Origin: an uncultured Gammaproteobacteria bacterium
Lineage (GTDB): Bacteria; Patescibacteriota; Patescibacteriia; Patescibacteriales; GWC2-42-12
Reading direction: 5' to 3'
Assembly: GCA_964560005.1 (NCBI GenBank)
Contig: CAZLKB010000003.1
Coordinates: forward strand, 110,951-174,950
DNA: 64,000 nt
This document shows, piece after piece, positions 4,283 to 63,658 of this stretch. The translations under genes were made by a program, and so were the position numbers. Numbering within the stretch: position 1 is the stretch's first letter; every line of letters starts with the position of its first letter. The notes under the pieces were generated by a model. The model worked only from the letters and a program-made list of their open reading frames with translations, had not been told where the DNA came from and searched no databases.

Positions 4283-4312
4283 TCCGCCAGAGGCGGATCC
4301 GCCTTTGGCGGA
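4283..4312. repeat. 30-nt GC-rich double-hairpin element, intergenic copy
   Basis: tccgccagaggcgga + tccgcctttggcgga, two tandem 15-nt hairpins. Same unit as at 8169, 15403, 23913, 49791, 55874 and 56267. Confidence 0.85.
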
Positions 4313-4319
4313 CTTGTTT

Positions 4320-5225
4320 TTACCTTAACTGCCAAATCCATTTGTCTAATAAATCTCTGTCTGACTTATTAATCAAATAAATATTGTCGCTATCGCCTCT
4401 TTTAGCGTAATATAGCTCATCTTTTGCCGAACCAATCATTAAAACATTATCAACTCCCTCGCCTGAGGCTTCTATAATTATTAAGTGCTTGTCCAGGCCG
4501 GTATTGGCGAAGGTCTGCTCGGGAATTTCCGCGGCTTTTAGATTAGTCATAATTTCCAATAACGGACCGATTTTTTCTTGATTTACCGCGAATTTTTCCG
4601 GCAATATGCCGCTCCATTTATCATCTTTAAATTCAACCGTGAATTCACGATTCGGATATTGAAATCTGATTTTGTTGATTTTCTCTTTAGCGGTGGAAAA
4701 AATCATTAAATCCCGCCACTCCGGCTGATTGAAAGAACCGGACAAATCGGCTTTAACTGAATAGGTAGCGGAAGACCCGGCCGTCGCAATATAAGTGCTA
4801 TCATAATCGCTGGCTCGACTGCCAATAATAAAGTCTACAACCGGCTGGCCGTCCTGATAAACCTTTACCGTTAAGCCGGCTTCTGTTTTAAACTCGCTTT
4901 TTCTCTCCGGATTATTGCTGACCAATTCAACTTCCGAGGCGGCCGCTTGTTTTAGGCTCTCTAAGGCGCCTGCTATTAGGCTTGGTTCAACATAAAAATC
5001 TTTAGTGTTATTGTATCTCCATTTTTCATTTTGTTTAGATAAAACGAGAGTGTTATCGCCGGAAACTACTTCAAGCTTATCAACTTTAGCGGCGTCGATT
5101 TTGGCAAAAATATTTTTCGGTTTGCCGAAATTATTTTGCCACTCTTTTAAAGGACCATGATAAAGATAAGCCAGGGCAATCAAAGCAATTAGCACCGCAC
5201 CCAAAATTAGAGTCTTTTTATTCAT
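4320..5225 (-). CDS. DUF4340-like protein (accessory to GldG-type ABC system)
   Basis: 301-aa ORF with an N-terminal TM helix. It is the last gene of the co-directional ABC ATPase, ABC-2 permease and GldG-like cluster, the usual context of DUF4340. Confidence 0.6.
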   Translation of the reverse strand: MNKKTLILGAVLIALIALAYLYHGPLKEWQNNFGKPKNIFAKIDAAKVDKLEVVSGDNTLVLSKQNEKWRYNNTKDFYVEPSLIAGALESLKQAAASEVELVSNNPERKSEFKTEAGLTVKVYQDGQPVVDFIIGSRASDYDSTYIATAGSSATYSVKADLSGSFNQPEWRDLMIFSTAKEKINKIRFQYPNREFTVEFKDDKWSGILPEKFAVNQEKIGPLLEIMTNLKAAEIPEQTFANTGLDKHLIIIEASGEGVDNVLMIGSAKDELYYAKRGDSDNIYLINKSDRDLLDKWIWQLR

Positions 5226-5376
5226 AAGTGATAATTTTAATTTTTAATTTTTAATTTTCAAACAATTTTTAATGTTTTAATTTTCAATTACTTGTATCAC
5301 CTCGCTTAGCGAGAGCGTAAAAATTTAATAATTGATCATTCATTGGAAATTGAAAATTGAAAATTGAAAATTTATT
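5226..5376. repeat. AT-rich inverted-repeat spacer element (gaaaatt dialect) with central GC hairpin
   Basis: Left arm aattttaatttttaatttttaattttcaaacaat and right arm cattggaaattgaaaattgaaaattgaaaatt, with central ctcgcttagcgag. It fills the gap between the gldG-like stop and the DUF4340 start. Confidence 0.75.
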
Positions 5377-6900
5377 TTATATCTGATCCACAAACTTAGT
5401 CCTTCTTCTGAAAAAATATCTTATCAAGCCGAACAGCACAACCAGCGCGGTCAGGCCGAAGACATTGGCATACCTGATCGTAGCTTTCATGGATTCAGTT
5501 ACTTCCTTAAGCGGCCTCTCGGTCACGCCTTTGGAGCGGATAGTGATTAGGTCATTACCCAAGCTTAAGCTATCCACTACATTCTGGAAAAAGACTAAAT
5601 TGTCCGGATAATTTCTTAAAAAGTTGTCAGTTATGAAATCACTATCGCCGACTAAGACGATTCGGCCGGCGGAAGTGTTCGGATTATTATAAACGCTATT
5701 GAATTTTCCGGATAAGGACACGGCTAAATCATATTTCCCTTTGGCGCCATTCTTAATTTCCGCCTGTGGAGACAAATTAAAATTATCCGCCACTAGCATA
5801 GCTCGATCAGAAGTTCTGGCCAGATATGATATGGTTATATCCTTCATTTTGTCAGGCGACAAATCAATTGATGACGCCCATGGCAAAACCAAACTCTCTA
5901 ATTTAGCAACCGCTATATTATTTTGATCAAAGCCGGCCTTTATAACTTTGGGCCAATAAGGGTAATTGGTTGAAAAAGTGACGAAACCCTGGCTAAAAGA
6001 TGCCATGCCGTTGTTTACATCTAAGATTAAATTATTATTCAGCTTAAGCCCATAGCCGGCTAAAATTTTATTTAAACCGGTATCATTCTTGGCCGCCTGC
6101 AGTCCCTGCTCCACAGTCACGCCGTTAGCCAGAATTATTAAAGAACCGCCTTTCATTAAAAAAGCATCAATTGCTTTTAATTCTTCGTCCTTAAAGGCCT
6201 CTTTCGGGCCAATAATAATTAATGTGTCCATGTTCTCAGGAATCTTTTTCTCGGCAGTATAATTGACCGCGGAAACATTGTAGATTTCGCTTAGTTTTTG
6301 AAAAATCGCGGTTATATCGTTTTGCGTGTCGGCCGAGCCATTGCCCTGCCAAAAACCGATGCTGGCTAGCTTATCATCAGTAACTTTTTTAATGGCCGAG
6401 GTAATCTGATATTCAAAATCACGCGTGTCCTGTATGACCGGTATGGCCTGAGTTTTGTCGCCGTATTTAACCACCAAGCCTAAATAACCGTTGATGACTT
6501 GATATTTGTCTTTTTCCAGAACATTAAATTGCAGTTGCGGAATTCCGGCCAGATACAGTTCCTGTTGCGTCGCCTGATCGTCTTTTGGATCAATAAATTC
6601 AACTTTAACCTTGCCGCCGGAATAATTGGAGTATTCTTCCAGGATATCCCCCACTTCTTGCCTTAAATTTAAATACTGCGATGGCAAATTAGCCGAAAAA
6701 TAAGCTTTAATATTAACCACATCCTTTAAATCAGCCACTGTCTTCTTGCTGACGCCGGAAATTGAATAATCTTTATTCTGGGTTAAATCAAAACGGTAAA
6801 AGATATTATAGGAAAAAAAGTTAAGCACGGCTAAAATGCCGATAACGATAATTATCAGAGCGGAGGAATTAGTTTTGTTCAAAAATTGGTGTAATTTCAT
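5377..6900 (-). CDS. GldG-like ABC-transporter auxiliary component
   Basis: 507-aa ORF with N- and C-terminal TM helices flanking a large exported domain. It sits next to ABC-2 permease and ATPase genes. The architecture matches the ABC_transp_aux/GldG family. Confidence 0.7.
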   Translation of the reverse strand: MKLHQFLNKTNSSALIIIVIGILAVLNFFSYNIFYRFDLTQNKDYSISGVSKKTVADLKDVVNIKAYFSANLPSQYLNLRQEVGDILEEYSNYSGGKVKVEFIDPKDDQATQQELYLAGIPQLQFNVLEKDKYQVINGYLGLVVKYGDKTQAIPVIQDTRDFEYQITSAIKKVTDDKLASIGFWQGNGSADTQNDITAIFQKLSEIYNVSAVNYTAEKKIPENMDTLIIIGPKEAFKDEELKAIDAFLMKGGSLIILANGVTVEQGLQAAKNDTGLNKILAGYGLKLNNNLILDVNNGMASFSQGFVTFSTNYPYWPKVIKAGFDQNNIAVAKLESLVLPWASSIDLSPDKMKDITISYLARTSDRAMLVADNFNLSPQAEIKNGAKGKYDLAVSLSGKFNSVYNNPNTSAGRIVLVGDSDFITDNFLRNYPDNLVFFQNVVDSLSLGNDLITIRSKGVTERPLKEVTESMKATIRYANVFGLTALVVLFGLIRYFFRRRTKFVDQI

Positions 6901-7398: not shown

Positions 7399-8133
7399 TC
7401 ACTTCCACGACCTTCTCTCAATCACCCTTACATTCAGCCACAAAAACAAAAATATAAAAGAAAAATAATAAATTATATCCTTGGTGTCAATCACGCCTTT
7501 GGCAATATTGTTAAAATGACTGCCTAGGCCTAAAAATTTCATAACCGGGACGAGCAAGGCTGGCGAACTGGCTAAAACGAAATCAGCGCCGATTATGAAA
7601 GCGAAAAAACAAGCCACCAGGCCTAAAATAAAAGCGATAATTTGATTCTTCGTTAAGCTGGAAATAAATAAGCCTAAAGCTAAATACGAACCGCCCAAAA
7701 ATAAGGCGCCTAAATAGCTTCCGATCACCGGCCCTTTATCCAGATTGCCCAGCCAGGCGATGCTTAAGGGCATGGTAAGCGAAAGCAGCAAACTGAAAAA
7801 TAAAAAGGTTAAAGCGCTGAAAAATTTAGCTAATACCACTTGCCAATCGGTTAAGGGCAAAGTCAATAAAAATTCAATCGTGCCGCTTTTCTTTTCTTCG
7901 GCCCAAAGCCTCATAGTAATAGCCGGCGCTAAAAATAAAAAAATCCAGGGCAAAAGCGAAAAATAATTTCTCATTGAGGCTTGGCCAACCAGGAAAAAAG
8001 AGTTAAAAAACAGCCAATTGCCGACGATTAAAAACACACCGATAAAAATATAAGCAATCGGAGAATTAAAGTAGGACATTAATTCTTTTTTAAATAATAT
8101 GTAGATGGTTTTTAGATACTGTGGTTTTGACAT
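7399..8133 (-). CDS. ABC-2 type transporter permease (GldF-like)
   Basis: Six predicted TM helices. Trimmed to ATG (MSKPQYLK), because the track start is a TTG inside the gaaaatt repeat. Adjacent to the ABC ATPase. Confidence 0.75.
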   Translation of the reverse strand: MSKPQYLKTIYILFKKELMSYFNSPIAYIFIGVFLIVGNWLFFNSFFLVGQASMRNYFSLLPWIFLFLAPAITMRLWAEEKKSGTIEFLLTLPLTDWQVVLAKFFSALTFLFFSLLLSLTMPLSIAWLGNLDKGPVIGSYLGALFLGGSYLALGLFISSLTKNQIIAFILGLVACFFAFIIGADFVLASSPALLVPVMKFLGLGSHFNNIAKGVIDTKDIIYYFSFIFLFLWLNVRVIERRSWK

Positions 8134-8168
8134 AATTAAATAATTTTCAATTCTCAATTTTCAATTTT

Positions 8169-8198
8169 TCCGCCCAAGGCGGATCAGCCTCGGGCTGA
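8169..8198. repeat. 30-nt GC-rich double-hairpin element, intergenic copy
   Basis: tccgcccaaggcgga + tcagcctcgggctga. The arms differ from other copies but stay self-complementary. Confidence 0.8.
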
Positions 8199-8384: not shown

Positions 8385-9314
8385 TTACTTCGTCAGTTCC
8401 CTGAATACATTCTCCAGGCTGGCGCTCTTCCTGCTGAATTCCAAAATGCTCCAATTATTTTTCATCACCGTCATAGATAAATATTCCCTTAAATCCACGC
8501 CGGCTTTGGGCTCGATTTCATAGCCGTAAATGTCTTCGGCCTCCTTGTCTTTAACCTCAACATTCGCCACATTCTCCATTTCTTTAAGCTGTTTAATAAT
8601 TTCCGCCTGCGGTCCTTTAATTTTAACATAAATCATTTCTACTCCGCCGAGCTGGCTAGATAATTCTTTGGGGCTGCCTTGCCCGACAATCTTTCCTTGA
8701 TTGATAATTATTACCCGGTCGCATGTGGCGCTGACCTCGCTTAGAATATGAGTAGAAAATATTACGGTTTTCTCCCGGCCGATTTCTTTGATTAAATCTC
8801 TAATTTCTACAATCTGATTCGGATCCAGTCCGGTAGTCGGCTCGTCCAAAATTAAAATATCCGGCTGGTGCATGATCGCTTGGGCTAAACCAACGCGCTG
8901 GCGAAAACCTTTAGACAATTCATCAATCGGCTGGCGCAATACCTTGGTCAAACCGCAAATTGAAACCACCCTGCCGATTCTTTCTTTAATAGTATTTTTT
9001 TCCAACGAACGAATTTCGGCAATAAATTTAAGATATTCAAACACCCTCATATCTTCATAAAGCGGCACGGTTTCAGGTAAATAGCCGATTTTTTTTCTGG
9101 TAGCTAAAGAATTGGCGGCTACATCTACGCCGTCAATCAAAATTTGGCCTGAAGTCAATGGCCAAAAAGAAGTAATAATCTTCATGGTGGTGGTCTTACC
9201 GGCTCCGTTCGGACCTAAAAAGCCTAAAATTTCACCTTTCTTTACCGAAAAGCTGATATCATTTAAAACTAAGCGATCGCCGAATTTTTTTGTTAAATTT
9301 TTTATCTCTATCAT
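8385..9314 (-). CDS. ABC transporter ATP-binding protein (GldA-like)
   Basis: Walker A GPNGAGKTT, signature LSKGFRQR, Walker B ILILDEPTTGLD. Confidence 0.9.
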   Translation of the reverse strand: MIEIKNLTKKFGDRLVLNDISFSVKKGEILGFLGPNGAGKTTTMKIITSFWPLTSGQILIDGVDVAANSLATRKKIGYLPETVPLYEDMRVFEYLKFIAEIRSLEKNTIKERIGRVVSICGLTKVLRQPIDELSKGFRQRVGLAQAIMHQPDILILDEPTTGLDPNQIVEIRDLIKEIGREKTVIFSTHILSEVSATCDRVIIINQGKIVGQGSPKELSSQLGGVEMIYVKIKGPQAEIIKQLKEMENVANVEVKDKEAEDIYGYEIEPKAGVDLREYLSMTVMKNNWSILEFSRKSASLENVFRELTK

Positions 9315-14436: not shown

Positions 14437-15351
14437 TCAAACCTTGGAATACTTCCCTACAGCTACCAGGCTGGCTAAAAAATTAACCAAAGTTACGGCT
14501 AAAAATTCCAAACCGAAAATAGCGAAAAAATTATTATTATAATATTCTAAAATATTAACCTCAAAACCGGCAAAGAAACTGGCTAAATACGGCTGAGAAA
14601 AGCTTAATAGAGGATATAGTATGGTTATAATAGCCGCTACCCCTATCAGCGCATAAATTATACCGGAGATTAAATAAGGCGCACGGATGAACCAGGTAGA
14701 CGCTCCCACCAATTTCATAATGCCGATCTCTCGCCTATGGGTATAAATCGCCACCCGCACGGTGTTATAGACGACCAAGATGGTTATCAATACAAATATC
14801 AGACTGATAAATAACCCGATCTCGCTGGCCTTTTCGGTTAGACTGTTAATCTTTGTCAGCATGGCTTTATGGTCGTCAAAATTCCTGGATTCAATAATCT
14901 GATCATCAAACTTATTCAAGCTGGCAATCAAGCTTTCATAATCATCAACATCTTTAGGTTTAATCACTAAGCTCGGCGATAAGGGGTTATTGCCTAATTC
15001 CAATAAGGCTTGCAGTATTTCTTGATTATTCTGATGCTTATCTCTGAAGTCCTCAATCGCGGCCTGCTGAGAGGTATAAACCACTTCTTTAACAGAATCA
15101 ATTTCTCCGATTTTATTTTTCAAAGCTAAAATTTTGCTCTCCTCGGTATTTGATTTTAAATATAAACTGATATCTACCTTTTCCTTGACCGCGCTAATGG
15201 CGGTTGAACCTAATACTTTTACCACCAATAATATATTTACCGATAATAAAGCTAGAATAATAATAATCAGGGTGATGATAGAAAGCCAGATATTGCGAAA
15301 TATATCCTGCAGGCTGAATTTTATCACTCTAAAAAAAGATAGTAAAAACAT
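14437..15351 (-). CDS. ftsX: cell-division ABC permease-like protein FtsX
   Basis: FtsX topology (TM1, large extracytoplasmic loop, three C-terminal TM helices), directly downstream of ftsE. Trimmed to MFLLSFF, because the track N-terminus SAKGGSASGGKIENCLSPDGGKLKI is a read-through of the repeat element. Confidence 0.85.
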   Translation of the reverse strand: MFLLSFFRVIKFSLQDIFRNIWLSIITLIIIILALLSVNILLVVKVLGSTAISAVKEKVDISLYLKSNTEESKILALKNKIGEIDSVKEVVYTSQQAAIEDFRDKHQNNQEILQALLELGNNPLSPSLVIKPKDVDDYESLIASLNKFDDQIIESRNFDDHKAMLTKINSLTEKASEIGLFISLIFVLITILVVYNTVRVAIYTHRREIGIMKLVGASTWFIRAPYLISGIIYALIGVAAIITILYPLLSFSQPYLASFFAGFEVNILEYYNNNFFAIFGLEFLAVTLVNFLASLVAVGKYSKV

Positions 15352-15354
15352 ATG

Positions 15355-15450
15355 GTTAATTTTCAATTTTCCCCCATCCGGGGACAAGCAATTCTCAATT
15401 TTTCCGCCAGAGGCAGATCCGCCTTTGGCGGACAATAAATTTTCAATGCA
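15355..15450. repeat. composite spacer element: ccccatccgggg hairpin + gaaaatt words + 30-nt double hairpin (15403-15432)
   Basis: The reverse complement matches 23883-23994 inside the GT4 gene at >90% identity by eye over about 75 nt (…ggcggaaaaattga[g/a]aattgcttgtccccggatgggggaaaattgaaaatt). Confidence 0.85.
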
Positions 15451-15551
15451 TTAATTTTCAAATAAACGCATCTTTTCTGCGCCTGTTTGAAAATTTAAAC
15501 ATTATATCATTGCAAATTGTTTGAAAATTGTAAATTGTAAATTGAAAATTT

Positions 15552-23276: not shown

Positions 23277-24539
23277 TTATATAATTCTAGAAGCACCGCT
23301 GAATAGTTTCAAGTATTCTTTGGCGGTTTTCTCCCAGCTAAATTTTTTCGCCTGCGCTAGACCGCGCGCGATTAATTTATTTCTCAAATTATTATCAGTT
23401 AAAATTTCGGCCATAGCACGAGCCAAGTCATTAATATTATAAGGGTCAACCATTATTGCGGCGTCGCCCGCGACTTCAGGCAAACTGGAGGAGAAGCTGG
23501 CGATTACCGGCAAGCCGCTGGCCATGGCTTCCAGTGGCGGAAAGCCAAAGCCTTCATAAAAGGAAGGGTAAACAAACACGCTCGCCAAATTATATAAATA
23601 AACTTTGTCCTCGCCGTCCACATAGTTTAAAAATTTTATATCATTTTTAAATTCCGACCGCTCCCATTCTTTATAAATGCTTTTGCTTTTCCACCCCCTG
23701 TTCCCGGCGATGACCAACTTTATATTTCTTAATTCTAAATTCTGACTTCTGACTTCATTATAGGCTCTAATTATTCCGTCCACGTTCTTCCGCGGCTCAA
23801 CCGTGCCAAGATAAAGTATAAATTTGTTCGGTAAATTATATTTATTTTTTACTTCCATCAAATTTCGTTCATCAGTATTTTGTTTGAAAATTTGAGAATT
23901 GTGATTTGTTTTTCCGCCATAGGCGGATCCGCCTATGGCGGAAAAATTGAAAATTGCTTGTCCCCGGATGGGGGAAAATTGAAAATTGATTTTCCTGTAT
24001 TCCTCCCCTACCCCCGCGTAGATTACTTTTATGTTACTTTCATTCACTCCGCACAGCTCGACAATATCCCGTTTAGTATTTTCGCTCACTGCCACTATAG
24101 TATTGAAACGCCTAACTAATTTTTTCACATTTACCATGCTATGCCAAAAATTCTTGCGCGCGGAAAAAAATTCTGGATACCTTAAAAATGATAGGTCATG
24201 AACCGCAATTAAGCTCCTAGCGCCCCCCGACATGCCGATAAAATTAATATGAGGCATGAAAAATACATCAACGCCCAGCGCTTGATCTATTTTCGGATAA
24301 TTAAAAAACTTAAAATACAAGTAATTTAATAATTTATTGGGGTAATTATATTTGACTAATTTAACATTATCGGCTGGAAATCGCGGGATACTCAGACAAT
24401 CGCCAAAACAATTATAAAACAGCCGGTATTGGTTATTATTATCCAGCCTTATAATCTCCCTGATTAAATTCAACGCATATTCGGACACGCCGCTATATTG
24501 CGCGTCCATCAGAGTTCGTATGTCAATGCCTATTTTCAT
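23277..24539 (-). CDS. GT4-family glycosyltransferase carrying an in-frame repeat-element insertion
   Basis: N-terminal MKIGIDIRTL and C-terminal GT4 core ILYLGTVEPRKN ... PSFYEGFGFPPLEAMASGLPVI. It also has about 34 extra residues encoded by the repeat at 23883-23994. Confidence 0.8.
   Translation of the reverse strand: MKIGIDIRTLMDAQYSGVSEYALNLIREIIRLDNNNQYRLFYNCFGDCLSIPRFPADNVKLVKYNYPNKLLNYLYFKFFNYPKIDQALGVDVFFMPHINFIGMSGGARSLIAVHDLSFLRYPEFFSARKNFWHSMVNVKKLVRRFNTIVAVSENTKRDIVELCGVNESNIKVIYAGVGEEYRKINFQFSPIRGQAIFNFSAIGGSAYGGKTNHNSQIFKQNTDERNLMEVKNKYNLPNKFILYLGTVEPRKNVDGIIRAYNEVRSQNLELRNIKLVIAGNRGWKSKSIYKEWERSEFKNDIKFLNYVDGEDKVYLYNLASVFVYPSFYEGFGFPPLEAMASGLPVIASFSSSLPEVAGDAAIMVDPYNINDLARAMAEILTDNNLRNKLIARGLAQAKKFSWEKTAKEYLKLFSGASRII
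23883..23994. repeat. composite spacer element inserted inside GT4 CDS (contains 30-nt double hairpin 23913-23942)
   Basis: tttccgccataggcggatccgcctatggcggaaaaattgaaaattgcttgtccccggatgggggaaaattgaaaatt is the reverse complement of the ftsX-upstream element at 15355-15450. Confidence 0.85.
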
Positions 24540-27290: not shown

Positions 27291-27412
27291 ATTAAAGCCA
27301 ATTAAATGCTAATGAAAAACGAATTAAAGCGAATTTATTGATCTGGTTTATGAACTCATTCGTTTTAATTCGTTTTAATTCGCGGCTAATTCGTTTTTAT
27401 ATTTAACTAATC

Positions 27413-27975
27413 TCAGGGCAAGCTATAAGCCGGATTCTGTTCCGCCAATTGGCGGAGATGATCATCTATCTAGCCATGATGTTGCCATCATGGTCAAGCG
27501 AGCCACTTTTCGTTACACCGTAAAAACGGCGTAGTTTGCTCTTGCTCCAGGTAGGGTTTGCCGCGTCTCTCTGTCGCCAGAGGACGAATCCTGTAATTTA
27601 AGTTAATCGGATATCCTTTATAACCCAAATTTCAGAATACTTTTCACCTTTCACCGCTGCTGCGCAGCAGAAATCCCAATAGCCAAGAGCCAACATCCAA
27701 ACAAATTTCAAATTCAAATTGCCGAAATATAAAATTAATTTATATTTGAGTATAGAAATTTGGAATTTATTTGGACATTGGAAATTGAAAATTGGTCATT
27801 CCGCTGCGGAGCAGCGGTTAGTATTGTCTCTGTGGCACTTTCCCTGCTCCGCTATAAACGGAGCGGTGGATATTATCCATTACCATTTTCCAGCGCATAA
27901 TGCGCTTTTAGAGTCCGGACTTTCCTCGCCGATTAAAATAAAATTTTAACCGGTGTAATCATCCGCTTACCCTGA
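27413..27975 (-). ncRNA. rnpB: RNase P RNA (bacterial type A) with greatly expanded AT-rich P12 region
   Basis: On the minus strand, CR-I is GAGGAAAGTCCGGACTC (rc of 27911-27927), CR-V is ACAGAATCCGGCTTATAG (rc of 27423-27440) and P1 is agggtaagc/gcttgccct. GTGCCACAGAGACAA and GGTGAAAGGTGAAAAG resemble the E. coli M1 P10/11-J11/12 strings. Confidence 0.85.
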
Positions 27976-39867: not shown

Positions 39868-40013
39868 AATTACACAAAATTTTCAATTTTTAATTTTTAA
39901 TTTCTAAACAATGATTCAATGTCTAAATTTTTAAACCGAATTAGATAGACATTTGAAAATTGAAAATTAATTCATTGAAAATTGTTTAAAAATTGAGAAT
40001 TGAAAATTGAAAA
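39868..40013. repeat. AT-rich inverted-repeat spacer element (gaaaatt dialect, conserved core)
   Basis: aatttctaaacaatgattcaatgtctaaattttt ... cattgaaaattaattcattgaaaattgtttaaaaattgagaattgaaaattgaaaatt. Near-identical cores occur at 42138-42280 and 58150-58313. Confidence 0.85.
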
Positions 40014-41321
40014 TTATTTTATATTTTCCTCAATCTCCATTAATCTATTATATTTCGCCAATCTCTCGCCTCTGGATAAGGAGCCGGCCTTGATATAATC
40101 GGCTTGAACCGCCACGGCCAAGTCGGCGATAAAGTCGTCCGTGGTTTCTCCGGAACGATGCGAAATAATGATTTTATAGTTATGCCTTTGAGCCAGCTTA
40201 ATGCAAGCGATAGTTTCCGATAAGGTACCGACTTGATTGGGTTTTATTAAAATAGCGTTGGCGGAGTTTTCTTTTAAGCCTCGCCTTAAGCGCTCAACAT
40301 TGGTAACGAATAAATCATCTCCTACCAGCATTAATCTGTCACCCAGCTCCTTATTTAATTTTTGCCAGCCGGCCCAATCGTCTTCAGCCAAAGGATCTTC
40401 AATGAAAATAATCGGGTATCTTCTAAACCATTCGGCATATAGACCGGACAAGGTGCCGGCCGTGAAGCTGGCCTGATCCAGCTTAAAGATATACTTGCCG
40501 TCTGCTTTATTATAAAGCTGGGACGAACCGACATCTATGCCCAAATTAACCTCTTCGCCCGGTTTATAGTTTGATTTAATAATCGCCGTCATGATTAATT
40601 CTATGGCCTGGATGCTGGAGGTCATATCGGGCGCGTAGCCGCCCTCACTGCCAACATCAGTATCGTATCCGGCCCGCTTCAAGATAACGCCCAAAGTATG
40701 AAAAATCTCCGCGCCCATCCTTACTTGTTCGCTTAGACTGGTATTCTTGGTAGGAATTATCATAAATTCCTGAAAATCCAAATTAGTGTCAGCGTGTTTT
40801 CCGCCGTTAAAAATATTAAAACAAGGAGTAGGTAATTTTACCCCCTTTAACAAAGGCCCGTCTCGCTTGGCGGGAGCCGAGGCGGAGGGTGAGGGGGATT
40901 TAAAGGCAAATTTATCGGCGATATATTCATAAAGCTCTTCATTGTTTGCTAAGGCGCCGGCGCGAGCGCAAGCTAGCGACACGGACAGAACCGCATTAGC
41001 GCCTAACTTGCTCTTATTCTTGGTGCCGTCCAGTTTAATCATCAATTCATCTATCTTTTCTTGTTTACCAATATCAAAACCCGCCAGCTTCGGCGCGATT
41101 TTCTTTTCAACATTTTTTACGGCATTTAATACTCCCAGACCGCCATATCTTTTTTTGTCCCCGTCGCGCAATTCTAAAGCTTCATGTACGCCGGTGGACG
41201 CCCCCGACGGCACGCCGGCCTTTGTCCACAAACCATTGTCCAGCATCACTTTAGCTTCAACCGTGGGGTTGCCTCGCGAATCTAAAATTTCGCGAGCTGA
41301 AATTTTTTTAATTTTAGGCAT
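40014..41321 (-). CDS. eno: enolase, with about 20-aa GC-hairpin-derived insertion
   Basis: MPKIKKISAREILDSRGNPTVEA, FNIFNGGKHAD, SHRSGETTD, IKAGSLSRGERLAKYN. Confidence 0.95.
   Translation of the reverse strand: MPKIKKISAREILDSRGNPTVEAKVMLDNGLWTKAGVPSGASTGVHEALELRDGDKKRYGGLGVLNAVKNVEKKIAPKLAGFDIGKQEKIDELMIKLDGTKNKSKLGANAVLSVSLACARAGALANNEELYEYIADKFAFKSPSPSASAPAKRDGPLLKGVKLPTPCFNIFNGGKHADTNLDFQEFMIIPTKNTSLSEQVRMGAEIFHTLGVILKRAGYDTDVGSEGGYAPDMTSSIQAIELIMTAIIKSNYKPGEEVNLGIDVGSSQLYNKADGKYIFKLDQASFTAGTLSGLYAEWFRRYPIIFIEDPLAEDDWAGWQKLNKELGDRLMLVGDDLFVTNVERLRRGLKENSANAILIKPNQVGTLSETIACIKLAQRHNYKIIISHRSGETTDDFIADLAVAVQADYIKAGSLSRGERLAKYNRLMEIEENIK
40842..40901. repeat. GC-rich hairpin repeat inside eno CDS
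   Basis: The minus-strand sequence tccgcctcggctcccgccaagcgagacgggcc matches the intergenic tccgcctcggcttcgcctttaggcgagacgggcc at 2842-2875. It encodes KSPSPSASAPAKRDGPLLKG. Confidence 0.7.
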
Positions 41322-41378: not shown

Positions 41379-42137
41379 CTACAAAATTTCGTATTCAACC
41401 GTGGCGATTATTATGATTTCATTGCTGCCGGCTTCAATAGCCGGAGAAACCCCGCCGGCCGAGACTGATTTTTCCATCAACCGATAATTATCATAATATG
41501 GGGTTGGCGGCTGGGTAGCTGATTCGCTGAAAGAAATTATATTCCCCAGCTTGACGCCCACGACTTTCGCTAAAGCGTCGGCTTTTTCCTTGGCTTGCTT
41601 AATGGCCATTTCCCTGGCCTGCTGTTTTAATATTTCCGGCTGATCAATTTCAAACGACAAATTGCCAATCTGATTCATGCCAATCTGCCCGGCCGCGTCT
41701 AAAATTTGACTGACCTTATCCAAGTCTCTAACCTTGATGCTTAAATCCTGGCTAACCGTATAGCCTTTTAAAATTTGGCGGCCGCTGGTCCAATCATACT
41801 GCGGCGAGATGGAATAATTTAAAGTTTTAATATCCAGCGGATCAATTTTAAAATCTTTTTTTAATTTTTCCACCATGCCGTTCATCTTGGTGGTATTGTC
41901 GGTTTGCGCCGCGGCCACGGTATTTTTTAATATGGAATAGCCCAGTTGGATTTTCGCCACATCGGGAACAGCGGTTACTTTGCCTTCTCCCGCCATACTA
42001 ATAGAGTGCGGAGTTTTTGGGCTAACTCCAATATAATCATGCGCTTTAACCGCATTCCAGCTTAAAAGAGCCAAATAAATTGAGCCCAGCGTTAAAAAAA
42101 CACCGATAAAGATTGTCACGATTTTGTTTGGAATCAT
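41379..42137 (-). CDS. SIMPL-domain (DUF541) periplasmic protein
   Basis: N-terminal anchor, GEGKVTAVPDVAKIQLGYS and C-terminal IEAGSNEIIIIATVEYEI, typical of the SIMPL/26-kDa periplasmic immunogenic protein family. Trimmed to ATG. Confidence 0.7.
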   Translation of the reverse strand: MIPNKIVTIFIGVFLTLGSIYLALLSWNAVKAHDYIGVSPKTPHSISMAGEGKVTAVPDVAKIQLGYSILKNTVAAAQTDNTTKMNGMVEKLKKDFKIDPLDIKTLNYSISPQYDWTSGRQILKGYTVSQDLSIKVRDLDKVSQILDAAGQIGMNQIGNLSFEIDQPEILKQQAREMAIKQAKEKADALAKVVGVKLGNIISFSESATQPPTPYYDNYRLMEKSVSAGGVSPAIEAGSNEIIIIATVEYEIL

Positions 42138-42280
42138 AAAATTAATTTTCAATTTTCAATTTCTAATTTCTAAACAATGATTTAATGTCTTAATTTTCAA
42201 ACAATGCTATTTTCATCATTGAAAATTAATTCATTGAAAATTGTTTGAAAATTGAAAATTATAAATTGAAAATTTTATTA
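42138..42280. repeat. AT-rich inverted-repeat spacer element (gaaaatt dialect, conserved core)
   Basis: aatttctaaacaatgatttaatgtcttaattttcaaaca ... cattgaaaattaattcattgaaaattgtttgaaaattgaaaatt. Confidence 0.85.
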
Positions 42281-42325
42281 TTTAAAATATTAAAATTTTA
42301 TAAGATACTTTATCTATGTTTTCCA

Positions 42326-49494: not shown

Positions 49495-49770
49495 TTATTT
49501 AACTATCTTCACCAATTTTAACCTCTCGCCGGCTCCACTGATTATTTTAATGTTACTTTTGCTAACGCTAAATTCCCGCGCTAAAAATTTTATTAGCTCT
49601 GAATTAGCTTTGCCCCGAATCGCCGGCGCCGCTATGTCTATCTTAATTATTTCCCCGTCATCATCCTTTAGGATTTGCTTGACTTTATCGGTAACCGAAC
49701 CAGGCCGGGCCTTTATCCTTAAATAAACTTCGCCGTCCTGATTAAACTGCTTGAGAAATTGGCTTAACAT
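49495..49770 (-). CDS. DUF167 (YggU-like) protein
   Basis: LRIKARPGS ... GKANSELIKFLAREFSVSKSNIKIISGAGERLKLVKI matches the DUF167 pattern. Confidence 0.75.
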   Translation of the reverse strand: MLSQFLKQFNQDGEVYLRIKARPGSVTDKVKQILKDDDGEIIKIDIAAPAIRGKANSELIKFLAREFSVSKSNIKIISGAGERLKLVKIVK

Positions 49771-49772
49771 GG

Positions 49773-49834
49773 TCGGGATACTGGGAATTGCCAGCCCGAG
49801 GCTGGTCCGCCTTGGGCGGAAACCCAGTCTACAC
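49773..49834 (-). pseudogene. duplicated 3-prime fragment of tRNA-Pro interrupted in the T loop by the 30-nt double-hairpin element
   Basis: tcgggatactgggaattg (18 nt) and aacccagtctacac (14 nt) are identical to 49879-49910 of the intact tRNA-Pro. They are separated by ccagcccgaggctggtccgccttgggcgga (49791-49820). No 5-prime half is present. Confidence 0.8.
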
Positions 49835-49878
49835 TCGCCGTTACACGGTTAAACTGACATCCTAATTAATATTACATG

Positions 49879-49949
49879 TCGGGATACTGGGAATTGAACC
49901 CAGTCTACACGCACCCGAAGCGTGTGTACTACCGGTATACGATATCCCG
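49879..49949 (-). tRNA. tRNA-Pro (anticodon CGG)
   Basis: Acceptor CGGGATA/TATCCCG. Anticodon arm CACGC-TTCGGGT-GCGTG. T arm CTGGG-TTCAATT-CCCAG. Confidence 0.9.
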
Positions 49950-54647: not shown

Positions 54648-54917
54648 CTATTTCGTCATTACATTCACCTTGGCCACCAGACCATAAAGTTCGTCCAACT
54701 TCTTGGTTAAATCCATTATCTCCTCTGCCGTGCCTTTCACCGCTAAGGCAATCAGGCCGGTGCAGCTTTTTATGCAAGCCGGTTGAACATTAACCCCTAG
54801 CCGGGAGATAATTAAATGACCCGAATCGGTTAACAACTGATTCATTTTTCCGGCGTTGGTCTGCCGATCTTCTACTAAGATTGAAATTACCGCTAAATGA
54901 ATTTTTTGGTTTGTCAT
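54648..54917 (-). CDS. TM1266-like small ACT/NikR-C-like protein (putative iron-only hydrogenase system regulator)
   Basis: 89 aa. The pattern IAVISILVEDRQ...N.LL...G..IISRLGV......IALAVKG...EI..LT.KL....GV..K follows the TM1266 family as I remember it. Immediately downstream of hydA. Confidence 0.5.
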   Translation of the reverse strand: MTNQKIHLAVISILVEDRQTNAGKMNQLLTDSGHLIISRLGVNVQPACIKSCTGLIALAVKGTAEEIMDLTKKLDELYGLVAKVNVMTK

Positions 54918-55141: not shown

Positions 55142-56992
55142 TTAACTTCTCTTCTTATAAGTCGTATGTAAAACTTGATGCTCTAATTTGCCCTTTTCTT
55201 TTAGCCAACTTAAGGCTAGAATCGCCTCTTTATTTTCATGCGCCCGCCTTATTTTATTGCCTGAATCAATTTTATACAGCGCGGCCAATCTTTTTTTCCT
55301 AATCTCCGCCGTGGTGGGAATCGGCTGGCCGCCGCCGCCGATACAGCCGTCCGGGCAGGCCATAACTTCAATATAGTCAAAATCTTTTAAATTGTCCAAA
55401 ATCGGCTGGATGTTGCCGATACCGTTCACCACCGCTACTCTGATTTTTTTATCCCCCATCATTAATTCGGCTTTTTTTACCCCGTTGAGCCCCCGGACAT
55501 CTTCAAACTCAATTCTGGTATTGCAAAACTTATTATTTAATTTTTCCGCTTTTTTTAAATCTCGGCAAACCGTGCCTTGCGCGGTCTCCATCAAATATTC
55601 GGCCGTCCTTAGGGCTGATTCCATAACCCCGCCGGTAGCGCCGTAAATCGCCGCCGCCCCGCTGGACTCTCCGAGAGGGTTATCGGCGGGCAGAGATTTT
55701 AGGCCGGTAAAATTTATTCTATTTTTTTTAATCAGCCAGGCCAGTTCGCGGGTGGTAATTACCTGATCAATCGGTAAAATTCCTTTTATCTTAAGCTCTT
55801 TGCGGCCGGCTTCAAATTTCTTGGCGGTACAGGGCATAACGGACACTACGGTTATGTTCTTCGGATTAAAATTTCGGCCCAAGGCCGATCCGCCTTGGGC
55901 GGACATTTTCTCGGCCCAATAAGTTTTGATAATACCGGCGCTATGCACCTGGGGGCTCTTAGCGGTTGTCATGTTGGGAATTAAATCAGGCCGAAAAAAC
56001 TCCACATACTTTATCCAAGCCGGACAGCAGGAAGTAAACATGGGCAAACCCTGACCGCTCTTTATCCTCTCTAGGAGCTCCTCAGCTTCAACGATAGTAG
56101 TGATGTCAGCGCCAAAATTTACGTCAAAAACATAATTAAAGCCTAACTTTTTCAAAGCCGCCACTACCTGGCCGGTCATCACCTTGCCGGCGGGAACGCC
56201 GAATTCTTCGCCGATGCTAACCCTGATTGAAGGCGCGAATTGCGCTACGACAATTTTACCATCTTTTCGGCCCGAGGCCGATCCGCCTCGGGCGGATAAA
56301 GCTTTTTCTACCAGCTCCCAATCGGAGTGCTCCTGCGCCGCGCCCACCGGGCAATGAACGGCGCATTGGCCGCAATAGATACAGTCGGTTTTTTTCTTAC
56401 TCTTATCACGAAAAGAAAAAACGCTTTTCTCCGTAACCGGCACCACTTCCTGCTCGGTCCCCTTGCCTCTAAGCTCCAAAAAATTTATCTTCTGCAAACT
56501 TGAACATGCTTCTATGCAATTGCGGCAATCAATGCATTGGCTGCCGTCAATCTCCACGGCGTTGGCGAATTTATAAACCTTTCTCTTGCCCTTGCGATCT
56601 TTAAATCTGGTAATTTCTATCTTATATTTATCGGCTAATTCCAATAGTTTACAATTTACCCGCCAAATGCAGGTCGGGCATCTTTCAATATGTTCGGCGA
56701 AAATTAACTCTATATTTAAATTGCGCGATCTTTTTACCCGCTCGGTGTCGGTCTTAATAACCATGCCATCTTCAACTACGGTATTACAAGATGTTACCAG
56801 CTTAGCCGGTCCTGAATTAGCCGCGGAAGAAACTTCAACGACGCAAACCCGGCAATTGGCTTTAACCGAAAGGTCAGGGTGAAAGCAAAGGCTGGGCAGA
56901 TCAATTCCGTGATCCCTGGCCGCTTTCATTATGGTCGTACCCTGATTACAGACGATTTCTTTGCCGTCTATATTAATTTTTATTTTTTTCAT
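55142..56992 (-). CDS. hydA: [FeFe]-hydrogenase catalytic subunit (CpI-like M3 architecture)
   Basis: N-terminal 2Fe-2S ferredoxin-like domain, HIERCPTCIWRVNC, two CxxCxxCxxxCP motifs, and H-cluster motifs FTSCCPAW, MPCTAKKFE and EVMACPDGCIGGGGQP. Confidence 0.9.
   Translation of the reverse strand: MKKIKINIDGKEIVCNQGTTIMKAARDHGIDLPSLCFHPDLSVKANCRVCVVEVSSAANSGPAKLVTSCNTVVEDGMVIKTDTERVKRSRNLNIELIFAEHIERCPTCIWRVNCKLLELADKYKIEITRFKDRKGKRKVYKFANAVEIDGSQCIDCRNCIEACSSLQKINFLELRGKGTEQEVVPVTEKSVFSFRDKSKKKTDCIYCGQCAVHCPVGAAQEHSDWELVEKALSARGGSASGRKDGKIVVAQFAPSIRVSIGEEFGVPAGKVMTGQVVAALKKLGFNYVFDVNFGADITTIVEAEELLERIKSGQGLPMFTSCCPAWIKYVEFFRPDLIPNMTTAKSPQVHSAGIIKTYWAEKMSAQGGSALGRNFNPKNITVVSVMPCTAKKFEAGRKELKIKGILPIDQVITTRELAWLIKKNRINFTGLKSLPADNPLGESSGAAAIYGATGGVMESALRTAEYLMETAQGTVCRDLKKAEKLNNKFCNTRIEFEDVRGLNGVKKAELMMGDKKIRVAVVNGIGNIQPILDNLKDFDYIEVMACPDGCIGGGGQPIPTTAEIRKKRLAALYKIDSGNKIRRAHENKEAILALSWLKEKGKLEHQVLHTTYKKRS
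55874..55903. repeat. 30-nt GC-rich double-hairpin element inside hydA CDS
   Basis: tcggcccaaggccga + tccgccttgggcgga, translated in frame as SAQGGSALGR. Confidence 0.85.
56267..56296. repeat. 30-nt GC-rich double-hairpin element inside hydA CDS
   Basis: tcggcccgaggccga + tccgcctcgggcgga, translated in frame as SARGGSASGR. Confidence 0.85.
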
Positions 56993-57150: not shown

Positions 57151-58149
57151 TTACTCCATTTCCGGCCAGACATTCTTAATAAAGCTTTTTATCGGTATGG
57201 CGACCGAGCCGCCTAAAGCGCAAATCGAAGTATCGGTTAAGTTGTCCAATAAATTATTAAATAAAACCCAATCGGTTTTCTCGGCGGTAAAAACTTCCTT
57301 AAGCCTAAGCGTGCCCTCGCGGCAGGGCGTGCACTGCCCGCAAGTTTCGCCCGAAAAAAAATCCAGCCAATGATTGATCAGGTCTTTACAATTATTTTTA
57401 GCCAGGCTGTAGACCGTGATTGATCCGGCGCCTAAAGCCGGCCGTTTTAACTGCCGGCTATTCAAAGCTTCACCCGACATATCTCCGCCTGCCACAACGA
57501 AAAAAGGAAATTTCGGATAATTTTTAGTTTCTTTAAGAACTTTTTCAATGGTAAAACCAGCCGGCAATTCAAAGACTCCTTCGTTCGGGCAGTCGCCCGC
57601 AATATCAAAAAATCTGTCATTTTTAAATTGGCCGGAGTTCACCAGGCTGACATTATAAAAAGTCTCTACATTATTTACAATAGTGGGAAACCCCCAAAGG
57701 CCGCGAGTTACCGGAAAAGGCGGCCTTAGTCTGGGTTCAATTCTACGGCCTTCAATCGCGTTTAAAGCCGCGCTTTCTTCTCCTCCTATATATCCCGCGT
57801 TTAAAGGCTTGACGAAAATTTCTATAGCCGAATCTTTTAACAAAGCGGCTATCTTTTTACTATATTTTTTATTATAAGCATAATTCAAAAATATATAACC
57901 TTTTACAGCGCACCTGTTCTTGGCTAAAAAATCAATGGCGATTTTCATACCATTAATCACTTTATCCGCGTGATGCTCTAAAATATAGCAATCTTTTACC
58001 AGGCCGGGCTCGCCTTCGGCCGCGTTGCAGACTACACATTTCTTTTCCGTGCAACACTGACAGACCGATTCCCACTTTTTTGCCACGGGAAAACCGGCGC
58101 CGCCGCGCCCAACCAAACCGGCTTGTTTAATTTTTTCTAGGATATCCAT
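57151..58149 (-). CDS. NuoF-like NAD(P)H-binding flavoprotein (hydrogenase diaphorase-type subunit, minimal form)
   Basis: GLVGRGGAGFPVAKKW, NAAEGEPG, GYIGGEESAALNAIEG, PPFPVTRGLWGFPTIVNNVETF, ETCGQCTPCREGT...ICALG (N3 4Fe-4S). No NuoE-like or ferredoxin extension domains. Trimmed to ATG. Confidence 0.8.
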   Translation of the reverse strand: MDILEKIKQAGLVGRGGAGFPVAKKWESVCQCCTEKKCVVCNAAEGEPGLVKDCYILEHHADKVINGMKIAIDFLAKNRCAVKGYIFLNYAYNKKYSKKIAALLKDSAIEIFVKPLNAGYIGGEESAALNAIEGRRIEPRLRPPFPVTRGLWGFPTIVNNVETFYNVSLVNSGQFKNDRFFDIAGDCPNEGVFELPAGFTIEKVLKETKNYPKFPFFVVAGGDMSGEALNSRQLKRPALGAGSITVYSLAKNNCKDLINHWLDFFSGETCGQCTPCREGTLRLKEVFTAEKTDWVLFNNLLDNLTDTSICALGGSVAIPIKSFIKNVWPEME

Positions 58150-58313
58150 AAAATAAATTTCCAATTTCTAATTTTCAATTTCTAAACAATGACTTAATGT
58201 CTAAATTTTCAAACATAATTATTTGGCGTTTTCAAATTGAAAATTCTGTCATTGAAAATTGTTTGAAAATTGAGAATTGAGAATTGAAAATTCTAGAGAC
58301 TTTCAATTATTTA
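58150..58313. repeat. AT-rich inverted-repeat spacer element (gaaaatt dialect, conserved core)
   Basis: aatttctaaacaatgacttaatgtctaaattttcaaaca ... gtcattgaaaattgtttgaaaattgagaattgagaattgaaaatt. Confidence 0.85.
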
Positions 58314-63449: not shown

Positions 63450-63658
63450 CTACACCATTTTAAAGACGGCATTCTTTATAGTATGGCGAAATATTGCTAT
63501 ACTCTATAGAGAGAGCCGTTTTTATTTATAAAGTTTGGGCTAAGCTTATTAAATTTGCGAACAAATTGAATTTCTATAAAGTGGTTTGAAAATTAATTAA
63601 TTATATCATTGAAAATTAATTAAAAATTGAGAATTGAAAATTGAAAATTATTATTTTT

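Follow-up and report, generated by a model that had tools for sequence, protein, structure and literature searches.

In a 64-kb window (the whole stretch of DNA analyzed here) from a Falkowbacteria-like bacterium of the Candidate Phyla Radiation (CPR), the gene for the catalytic subunit of a group A [FeFe]-hydrogenase, hydA, carries two in-frame copies of a 30-nt, GC-rich double hairpin. We think it likely that this 30-nt block is a non-autonomous, selfish repeat similar to repetitive extragenic palindromic (REP) sequences and Rickettsia palindromic elements (RPE), and that it was inserted twice in hydA, where it is tolerated and translated in permissive loops. The block belongs to a repeat family, differs from an empty allele by exactly 30 nt with no target duplication, lies at loop and linker positions, and displays hairpin covariation, a reading-frame bias, a flank preference and nesting in other repeats. 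It appears to be mobile, now or formerly, rather than only ancient, and its copies in genes are probably translated. Judging from its sequence, HydA is most likely still functional, with the inserts as near-neutral passengers.

The two inserts in hydA

The host gene and its two copies of the element are:

55142 to 56992, minus strand: hydA, group A [FeFe]-hydrogenase catalytic subunit, 616 aa with a single terminal stop, host of two element copies
55874 to 55903, minus strand: element copy at site 2, SAQGGSALGR, aa 364-373, covariance model score 50.7 bits
56267 to 56296, minus strand: element copy at site 1, SARGGSASGR, aa 233-242, covariance model score 50.7 bits

HydA has the features of group A [FeFe]-hydrogenases, namely the motifs L1 (TSCCPxW), L2 (MPCxxKxxE) and L3 (ExMxCxxGCxxGGGQP) and N-terminal 2Fe-2S/4Fe-4S ferredoxin-like domains. 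Its Pfam matches include Fer2_4, NADH-G_4Fe-4S_3, Fe_hyd_lg_C and Fe_hyd_SSU, and source records label its orthologues “[FeFe] hydrogenase, group A.” The best match in the PDB is the electron-bifurcating hydrogenase HydA1 (8a6t_A, E=7e-135, full-length alignment), and HydA also aligns end to end with 7q4v and with the entries for CpI (~1e-114). The original prediction that two 30-nt elements lie in frame in an open hydA is confirmed in its coordinates, frame and both decapeptides, as is its claim of intact H-cluster motifs (TSCCPAW at aa 320-326, MPCTAKKFE at aa 386-394 and EVMACPDGCIGGGGQP at aa 542-557). Site 2 reads TCGGCCCAAGGCCGATCCGCCTTGGGCGGA on the plus strand and TCC GCC CAA GGC GGA TCG GCC TTG GGC CGA on the coding strand, with 14 residues (aa 374-387) separating the end of its insert from the MPC cysteine, C388, further downstream. 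The coding strand of site 1 reads TCC GCC CGA GGC GGA TCG GCC TCG GGC CGA. The predicted gain of about 10 residues per site holds exactly at site 2, whereas site 1 has a net gain of nine: there HydA has SARGGSASGRKDG where the consensus has xDKS, corresponding to the 30-nt block and an adjoining one-codon indel. The solved homologues 8a6t and 7q4v show the matching gaps, of 9 residues at site 1 and 10 at site 2.

A multiple alignment, which had been proposed as a check, recovered orthologues with empty sites. This MAFFT alignment comprises the 70 best database matches, all of them Patescibacteria-type HydA with 64-80% identity, and about 65 of the 70 CPR orthologues are without the insert residues. 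Almost all read ..VEKALxDKSKIVVAQFAPS.. at site 1 and ..TYWAEKMKINPKNIVVVS.. at site 2 (the “..AEKMKINPKN..” type). In the closest orthologue (locus L002, protein P0002), the empty site 2 is gag aag atg followed directly by aaa ata, and the window has gag aaa atg, the 30 nt, and then aat ttt. The filled and empty sites are thus set apart by exactly the 30-mer, whose boundaries are unambiguous, and neither flank is duplicated.

Site 2 is also occupied in a few other orthologues. In P0010, from a Candidatus Falkowbacteria genome (~78% identical; its cluster includes OGF24288.1), SAQGGSASGR stands at exactly the same position. In P0008 the site holds a version lengthened to 51 nt by 21 nt nested within hairpin 1, and in P0042 and P0059 a single 15-nt hairpin, i.e., half an element. 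A neighbor-joining tree of HydA based on 565 well-aligned columns arranges the nearest sequences as ((P0001 filled, P0002 empty),(P0010 filled, P0024 empty)), where P0001 is the HydA of the window. P0008, P0042 and P0059 fall in distant clades and carry the canonical subfamily or a half element, not the variant found in hydA. To explain this pattern, the element must either have struck the same hot spot twice independently or have been gained once, earlier, with precise losses since. Between the window and the hydA of locus L001, the gene is 74% identical, and 52% at third codon positions, whereas the element is identical in 29 of 30 nt and at 10 of 10 third positions (p ~0.0015). The GC content of the element is 73-80%, compared with 46% for hydA and 41% for the window. 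The patchy occupancy, the conservation at nucleotide level and the copies in non-coding DNA of the window argue that the residues at site 2 reflect a DNA element and not a conserved peptide loop.

It is highly improbable that the extra residues are ancestral or convergent peptide loops of this HydA clade, kept by selection on the protein and only incidentally similar to an intergenic repeat. Nearly the same decapeptide does occur at the same position in P0010, and related peptides occur in P0008, P0042 and P0059. However, non-coding DNA of the window and hundreds of unrelated loci contain the identical 30-mer, no insert is present in the sisters P0002 and P0024, the third-position identity and GC content of the element depart from those of the gene, and its variants preserve base pairing rather than amino acids. 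Orthologues sharing the residues at the same site had been named beforehand as evidence for ancestral loops. P0010 is such a case at site 2, but the patchy occupancy, the third-position identity and the different subfamily in distant lineages argue against an ancestral loop.

An assembly or sequencing artefact, such as chimeric or adapter-like sequence in the contig, would have to be considered for this genome, of which a single assembly is on record (P0001 has one member on one contig). We regard it as exceedingly unlikely, since the site-2 insert is present on eight contigs of the P0010 lineage from independent NCBI, JGI and ENA assemblies as well as in L226 (99.3% identical to P0010), and the element recurs in metagenome-assembled genomes from many studies and assemblers, in both short- and long-read data. 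Variable loops, compensatory stems, a consistent flank preference and a frame bias are not expected of an artefact either.

To locate the inserts in the protein, an AlphaFold2 model of HydA was built with a 66-sequence alignment (mean predicted local distance difference test score, pLDDT, 76; predicted template modeling score 0.73). Insert 1 is modeled as a coil between helix 225-233 and strand 247-252 (pLDDT <50 at 237-243), and insert 2 as a coil between helix 347-365 and strand 380-386 (pLDDT <50 at 369-372); the blocks of the H-domain around them have predicted scores of 88-96. From the alignment to CpI and 8a6t, and from the established structure of CpI, we take site 1 to be the linker joining the ferredoxin-like F-cluster region to the H-domain, and site 2 to be the loop preceding the strand with the MPC cysteine, a ligand of the [4Fe-4S]H subcluster.

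Other short, lineage-specific inserts are numerous in HydA of CPR bacteria, at about seven recurrent loop positions (carriers include P0004, P0037, P0042, P0043 and P0055 (L004:~530-570), and P0010, P0024, P0003, P0031, P0039 and others). At site 1 of another lineage, PLPPFVKGG is the translation of the hairpin GCCCCCCTTTGTTAAAGGGGGC. Further inserts derive from other hairpin repeats (PHPLLIRRGGGG, LSLPLGKGEK) and from AT-rich repeats (KKLEIRNLKFG). The insert sites of HydA are permissive loops that have been hit independently by several repeat families. Separately, the L3 motif of the window HydA (55322-55369, aa 542-557) reads MACPDGC where nearly all orthologues have MACPGGC; the Asp is also found in P0010. 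The gene lies beside a NuoF-like HydB gene (57151-58164) and a gene for a TM1266-like regulator (54648-54917).

Anatomy of the element and its copies in the window

Each copy is a pair of directly adjoining 15-nt hairpins, both having a GC-rich stem of 6 bp and a loop of 3 nt, and the consensus is TCCGCC-RRA-GGCGGA followed by TCCGCC-TYY-GGCGGA. Compensatory stem variants in the window are TCGGCC/GGCCGA (both hydA copies), TCAGCC/GGCTGA (the copy at 8169, second hairpin) and CCAGCC/GGCTGG (the copy at 49791); TGCGCC/GGCGCA and CCCTCC/GGAGGG occur in other genomes. Two structural models were compared on an alignment of 16 element sequences, whose rows had been picked with the double-hairpin model, so that the pairing counts lean toward it:

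Double-hairpin model: 99.0% of cells paired; 6 of 12 pairs changed on both sides; reached by 0 of 500 shuffles
Single 13-bp hairpin model: 89.4% of cells paired; thermodynamic minimum free energy (MFE) structure of most copies; broken precisely by the stem variants

The hydA copies have MFE values of -23 to -25 kcal/mol (z-scores -3.4 to -4.2). Within a copy, one loop tends to be the reverse complement of the other, exactly so in 27 of 131 copies among the matches listed, where about 2% would be expected by chance. The whole 30-mer is therefore almost perfectly palindromic, much as an inverted dimer of one 15-nt unit would be.

Copies are preceded by T and followed by A. The frequencies among the matches listed are T(.58) T(.86) T(.63) at positions -3 to -1 and A(.60) A(.78) A(.60) at +1 to +3, and the preference is alike for coding and non-coding copies. 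Because the empty hydA allele already has ATG followed by AAA at the site, we attribute the flank bias to target preference and not to the element itself. An intrinsic (rho-independent) terminator was rejected, as the conserved T-run is 5' of the hairpins, with the A's 3', on either strand; the idea is also contradicted by the ~37% of copies inside open reading frames (ORFs) among the matches listed and by the copies at 8169 and 15403, which are inside operons. No known RNA family in Rfam matches the element: a gathering-threshold search of the whole window and an E-value search around one copy returned only RNase P, tRNAs and spurious miRNA hairpins.

The 64 kb contain seven clean copies; for a search pattern allowing up to three mismatches, 100 shuffles gave a chance expectation of 0.00. 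A covariance model built from the element identified exactly seven, scoring 46-53 bits on the better-scoring strand, and the next candidate had 12 bits. Three copies are intergenic, two are in hydA, and the linker of a GT4 glycosyltransferase and a fragment of tRNA-Pro have one each. The original prediction of a dispersed palindromic DNA element, placed in frame in a catalytic hydrogenase gene in the manner of RPEs, is supported by the five copies outside hydA together with the empty alleles and the predicted-loop positions. These five are:

4283 to 4312: intergenic copy TCCGCCAGAGGCGGATCCGCCTTTGGCGGA, between the 3' ends of the convergent genes 2904-4235 (+) and 4320-5225 (-), 52.9 bits
8169 to 8198: intergenic copy, between an ABC-transporter ATPase gene, 8385-9314 (-), and an ABC-2 permease gene, 7399-8157 (-)
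15403 to 15432: copy in a ~110-nt composite repeat (15358-15467), upstream of the likely start of ftsX (ORF 14437-15435, -)
23913 to 23942, minus strand: third in-frame copy, SAIGGSAYGG, in the interdomain linker of the GT4 glycosyltransferase ORF 23277-24539 (-), 420 aa
49791 to 49820, minus strand: copy in the T-loop of a partial 3'-half duplicate of tRNA-Pro(CGG), arranged as gtgtagactgggtt, element, caattcccagtatcccga

The GT4 protein has its domains at 16-177 (Glyco_transf_4) and 231-393 (Glycos_transf_1), and its copy of the element is nested in a composite AT-rich/hairpin repeat (23878-23987). In all, the linker insert is ~40 aa long and in frame, made up of translated AT-rich GAAAATTG-type repeats, a CCCCGGATGGGGG hairpin and the 30-nt element (..RKINFQFSPIRGQAIFNFSAIGGSAYGGKTNHNSQIFKQ..). 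Empty orthologues (378-379 aa) read GVGEEFRI-NVDRE, and others have translated AT-rich repeats or different repeat-derived inserts at the same point. In the nearest orthologue, P0125, the AT-rich composite is present and the 10-aa SAIGGSAYGG is absent; the window copy is thus a nested insertion into an older insert. The linker is an insertion hot spot. A PDB alignment of the GT4 protein covered only the C-domain and was uninformative on the linker. The ~110-nt composite (AT-rich repeats, CCCCGGATGGGGG hairpin and element) is present twice in opposite orientation, at 15358-15467 upstream of ftsX and at 23878-23987 in the GT4 gene, and its sequence may represent a larger, RPE-sized mobile unit.

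The tRNA-Pro fragment is a tandem duplicate (49770-49860, -) covering the variable loop, T-arm and acceptor strand, next to an intact tRNA-Pro(CGG) at 49878-49949 (-). A second tRNA with an intron-like element was rejected: ARAGORN finds no tRNA after deletion of the element, leaving a 3'-half fragment. This fragment could be the att-site remnant of an integrated element.

Occurrence in other genomes and choice of reading frame

We searched for the element in two ways. A scan for the canonical form by exact stem match, with one genome per GTDB species, yielded at least 120 loci (L005-L124), and a scan of metagenome contigs for the variant found in hydA yielded at least 120 more (L125-L244). 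The element is thus present in at least 240 loci under many phylum labels. Among the matches listed, those of the GTDB scan are labeled as many Patescibacteria classes, Omnitrophota, Kiritimatiellae, Verrucomicrobiota, Lentisphaerae, Planctomycetales, Ignavibacteria, Bacteroidota, Chloroflexota, Firestonebacteria, Desulfotomaculaceae and others. The matches in Ignavibacteria include long-read contigs of 1.6 Mb. Gene exchange among Patescibacteria, Omnitrophota and Bacteroidota in groundwater has been reported (PMC12455944), and the spread of the element across phyla fits that report. A phage vector was rejected, as only two matches were found in 2.9 million viral contigs.

Copies were counted as intragenic when the ORF is open for at least 60 codons on both sides of the element. 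Among the matches listed, from which the counts of frame, orientation and host gene below are also taken, this applies to 46 of 133 canonical and 47 of 121 variant copies (~37%). Of 95 copies in long ORFs, 81 (85%) use the frame that encodes SAxGGSAxGG (SAxGRSAxGG in reverse orientation); the remainder use PPxADPPxAE (11) or RxRRIRLxR (3). Frame models with the flank (target) preference alone predict 36-52% in the SAxGGSAxGG frame (binomial p = 1e-11). Elsewhere, in-frame hosts include PheT, DnaG, UvrB, Mfd, PolX, a Mur ligase, an ArsA-like ATPase, a solute-binding protein and AtpH, and many of the copies are at interdomain linkers, including those of DnaG, Mfd, PheT and UvrB. Because of the frame bias, which is the main, if indirect, basis for this view, the inserts appear to be translated and filtered by selection on the peptide. 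The predicted setting of a CPR-like genome and a metalloenzyme holds for hydA, but it is not peculiar to it, as the element lies in frame in many housekeeping genes of many phyla.

We considered whether the 30-nt blocks might be skipped during translation, like the mitochondrial “byp” elements or the segment in T4 gene 60, or removed from the RNA. Bypassed mitochondrial elements are reportedly GC-rich hairpin inserts in AT-rich genes, a description that the hydA copies resemble. Even so, skipping seems very unlikely to us: if the blocks were skipped, there would be no reason for 85% of coding copies to use the one benign Ser/Ala/Gly frame, the length of the element is in every case divisible by three and the frame used contains no stop, and no pair of take-off and landing codons is present at the hydA copies (ATG/AAT at site 2, TTA/AAA at site 1).

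Several of these loci deserve mention in their own right. Five AtpH-like orthologues (F-ATPase delta/OSCP C-terminal; L187, L170, L243, L236 and L145), retrieved by exact stem match and therefore a biased sample, are 70-87% identical in nucleotides and have the element at the same codon (..K SAxGGSAxGR DLKTQ..). In Kiritimatiellae STD1_155 (L009 twice, L054) the element recurs between the flanks gcataggaattt and caatccgtctttgttgtcattccga. In L079, L124 and L078 it is inside the loop of a CCCCCTT..AAGGGGG hairpin. Locus L094 (L094:1-5037, +) has an open frame of at least 1,679 codons that runs off both ends of the 5,037 nt, with element matches at 679, 943 and 3541; one match is a CCCGCC/GGCGGG compensatory variant, and only the copy at 943 is confirmed in frame. 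Nesting in other repeats is seen in the GT4 composite and in L079, L124 and L003.

These results suggest how the element could have come to reside in hydA. Copies would insert without target duplication next to T-rich/AAA sequence, and two of them would have landed where surface loops are encoded, one in the linker that joins the F-cluster region to the H-domain and the other in the helix-to-strand loop before the MPC cysteine. With 30 nt, or 10 codons, the element never shifts the reading frame. It is normally stop-free, and one of its frames encodes a flexible decapeptide rich in Ser, Ala and Gly. It would then simply be translated, and purifying selection would keep only the copies in permissive loops and in that frame. 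The combination of hairpins, a short target and no duplication resembles the single-strand chemistry of HUH enzymes (IS200/IS605, RAYT), which we offer as an analogy and not as a finding.

Alternatively, the hairpins could be kept for a role of the RNA or DNA in the gene, for instance in ribosome pausing, in mRNA stability or processing, or as a protein-binding site, and would then be domesticated regulatory modules; pausing at a domain boundary could aid co-translational folding or cluster insertion. Such a role would account for the stability of the hairpins (shown by the MFE values and z-scores of the hydA copies), for stems maintained through compensatory change, for the copies at interdomain linkers (HydA site 1, GT4, DnaG, Mfd, PheT, UvrB) and for the intergenic copies inside operons (between ABC ATPase and permease genes and upstream of ftsX), which recall the REPs of E. 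coli. The intact element at the same hydA site in P0001 and P0010 despite saturated synonymous divergence, and likewise in the five AtpH orthologues, points the same way. On the other hand, most orthologues of HydA, GT4 and the other hosts have no element, site 2 is within a domain and not at a boundary, and the variant has no preferred orientation with respect to its host gene (16 copies forward and 22 reverse). A function is also hard to reconcile with the copies of P0008, P0042 and P0059, which occupy the same site in decayed, half or interrupted form, and with the one copy in a dead tRNA fragment. On balance we consider such a role unlikely, and favor a selfish repeat that is tolerated and translated.

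Some observations weigh against the latter. No mobilizing gene was found linked to the element: in an all-vs-all BLAST of 3,882 ORFs, no protein family was present in more than 5 of the 120 listed loci (8 kb each). No presence/absence polymorphism was seen between near-identical strains, and the empty sites among the fetched loci are only distantly related (~70-82% in nucleotides). The nearest empty hydA allele is only ~80% identical in protein, so that any movement need not have been recent. The neighbor-joining tree behind the patchy occupancy of site 2 carries no support values. The predicted surface exposure of the inserts comes from a model with a mean pLDDT of 76 and from alignment gaps, not from coordinates, and translation is suggested by the frame bias only. 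Finally, retention at the same site in AtpH (70-87% in nucleotides) and in the hydA of P0001 and P0010 fits old, retained insertions, and the retained hairpins may be selected for function rather than being purely selfish.

Relation to known repeats and significance

Palindromic repeats fused in frame to genes count as textbook curiosities, and most known cases are from Rickettsia. The original prediction likened the hydA inserts to RPEs, and the parallel stands as one between analogues, but not as membership (30 nt compared with 105-146 bp, apparently another sequence and another host range). In both cases, palindromic repeats are intergenic as well as fused in frame in conserved protein genes (in the window, three in frame, three intergenic and one in the tRNA fragment; elsewhere, 95 intragenic among the matches listed), and they occur in RNA genes, RPEs in transfer-messenger RNA and RNase P RNA and the present element in the tRNA fragment, with other repeats in RNase P RNA. 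RPEs are palindromic repeats of Rickettsia, 105-146 bp in length (Ogata et al. 2000, reviewed in PMC2229807), and are likewise tolerated, the product of an RPE-bearing gmk gene being translated and active (PMC2229807). Unlike the 30-nt tandem double hairpin, an RPE is one long stem-loop with terminal inverted repeats. RPEs are also restricted to Rickettsia, whereas the element has hosts in Patescibacteria, Omnitrophota, Ignavibacteria and others, and the two are set apart here by size, structure and host range. Translation has been shown experimentally for RPEs and is inferred for the 30-nt element.

REPs, bacterial interspersed mosaic elements (BIME) and REPINs are mobilized by REP-associated tyrosine transposases (RAYT), of the Y1 HUH type (PMC3116915, PMC3337134). 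Like them, the element is a short, GC-rich, imperfect palindrome in doublets (20-40 nt for REPs; a 30-nt doublet of 15-nt palindromes, with seven copies per 64 kb, here). It also shares their tens to hundreds of dispersed copies, often in operons, their lack of autonomy and their insertion without target duplication. However, REPs are extragenic by definition, whereas ~37% of element copies are intragenic among the matches listed. REPs have a 5' GT[AG]G tetranucleotide, in contrast to the T-rich/AAA flanks of the element, which have no GTAG. They are also specific to a lineage and accompany a cognate RAYT gene flanked by REPs, whereas the 30-mer spans phyla. No RAYT-like associated gene emerged from the 120 listed 8-kb loci, where no family exceeds 5 of 120, and the window genes are partly annotated.

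Closer in size are the small dispersed repeats (SDR) of cyanobacteria, which are said to be palindromic, ~20-30 nt long and apparently mobile. Like the element, SDRs nest in other repeats, lie in protein-coding genes without disrupting them and have no known transposase; they differ in sequence, and their hosts are limited to some cyanobacteria. To our knowledge, neither a tandem double hairpin nor a strong single-frame bias has been reported for SDRs. Double-hairpin elements (DHE) have reportedly been described in Allomyces mitochondria. These and the GC clusters of yeast mitochondria are GC-rich elements with two hairpins and a few tens of nt in AT-rich genomes, and they occupy spacers and variable segments of rRNA, with occasional in-frame cases in protein genes. 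In contrast to the present element, they are organellar and unrelated in sequence, and some related inserts are bypassed and not translated.

Palindrome-associated transposable elements (PATE) derived from IS200/IS605 have hairpins at both ends, no classical inverted terminal repeats and no target duplication, insert beside a short specific sequence and can be excised seamlessly. Unlike the 30-nt element, they are at least ~100 nt long and have distinct left and right ends and a cognate TnpA; for the element, no link to a TnpA gene was seen. Miniature inverted-repeat transposable elements (MITE) derived from insertion sequences are ~100-400 bp long, with terminal inverted repeats and target-site duplication, unlike hydA site 2, where exactly 30 nt are added without duplication. 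Membership in the RPE, REP/REPIN and MITE groups was rejected on size, structure, host, location, flank motif and target duplication. No description of the 30-nt element was found in the literature searched, which did return RPEs, REPINs and the mitochondrial analogues.

A bolder reading, which we put forward tentatively and with less than even confidence, is that the double hairpin represents an undescribed, pan-phylum class of ultra-small mobile DNA. Its build may be compatible with coding (10 codons exactly, with no stop and with a Gly/Ser/Ala linker as its product); it may colonize the housekeeping genes of uncultured bacteria from groundwater and sediment (including Patescibacteria, Omnitrophota, Ignavibacteria and the Planctomycetes-Verrucomicrobia-Chlamydiae group); and a putative hairpin-specific enzyme may spread it between phyla, inserting it by T-rich/AAA sequence without target duplication. 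If so, loop insertions in conserved enzymes would have a natural source in this element.

As an example, hydA is clean and well supported; more surprising is the pan-phylum pattern with its single frame. Compared with RPEs, what is new is a much smaller unit, its presence in a metalloenzyme with a highly conserved active-site scaffold and its recurrence in many uncultured phyla, the same 30-mer being found in frame in genes for replication, repair, translation and the cell wall. If confirmed, the element would help annotation by accounting for some of the unexplained short inserts that make CPR proteins less similar to reference sequences. It would also be a marker of genetic exchange between co-occurring phyla, would mark natural permissive sites in [FeFe]-hydrogenase and other enzymes for protein engineering, and would pose a concrete question for the study of mobile DNA: which enzyme recognizes and copies a 30-nt double hairpin?

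Other repeats are also plentiful in the window. The RNase P RNA (class A, 166.8 bits; 27410-27974, -) is 565 nt long, compared with 367 positions in the model, and includes ~150 nt of AT-rich CAATTTTCAATTTCC-type repeat in the P12 region, of the same family as the intergenic repeats, and a small hairpin near P4/P5. AT-rich intergenic repeat families D1-D11 (AATTTTCAATTTT / GAAAATTGAAAATTG, and TGTCATTTTTAACTTTGAGATTTACATTTTACATT) are abundant up- and downstream of many window genes. Examples are at 5227-5384, 39873-40027, 42132-42286, 58144-58297 and 63560-63654, and these repeats may be promoter-associated sequence or mobile DNA.

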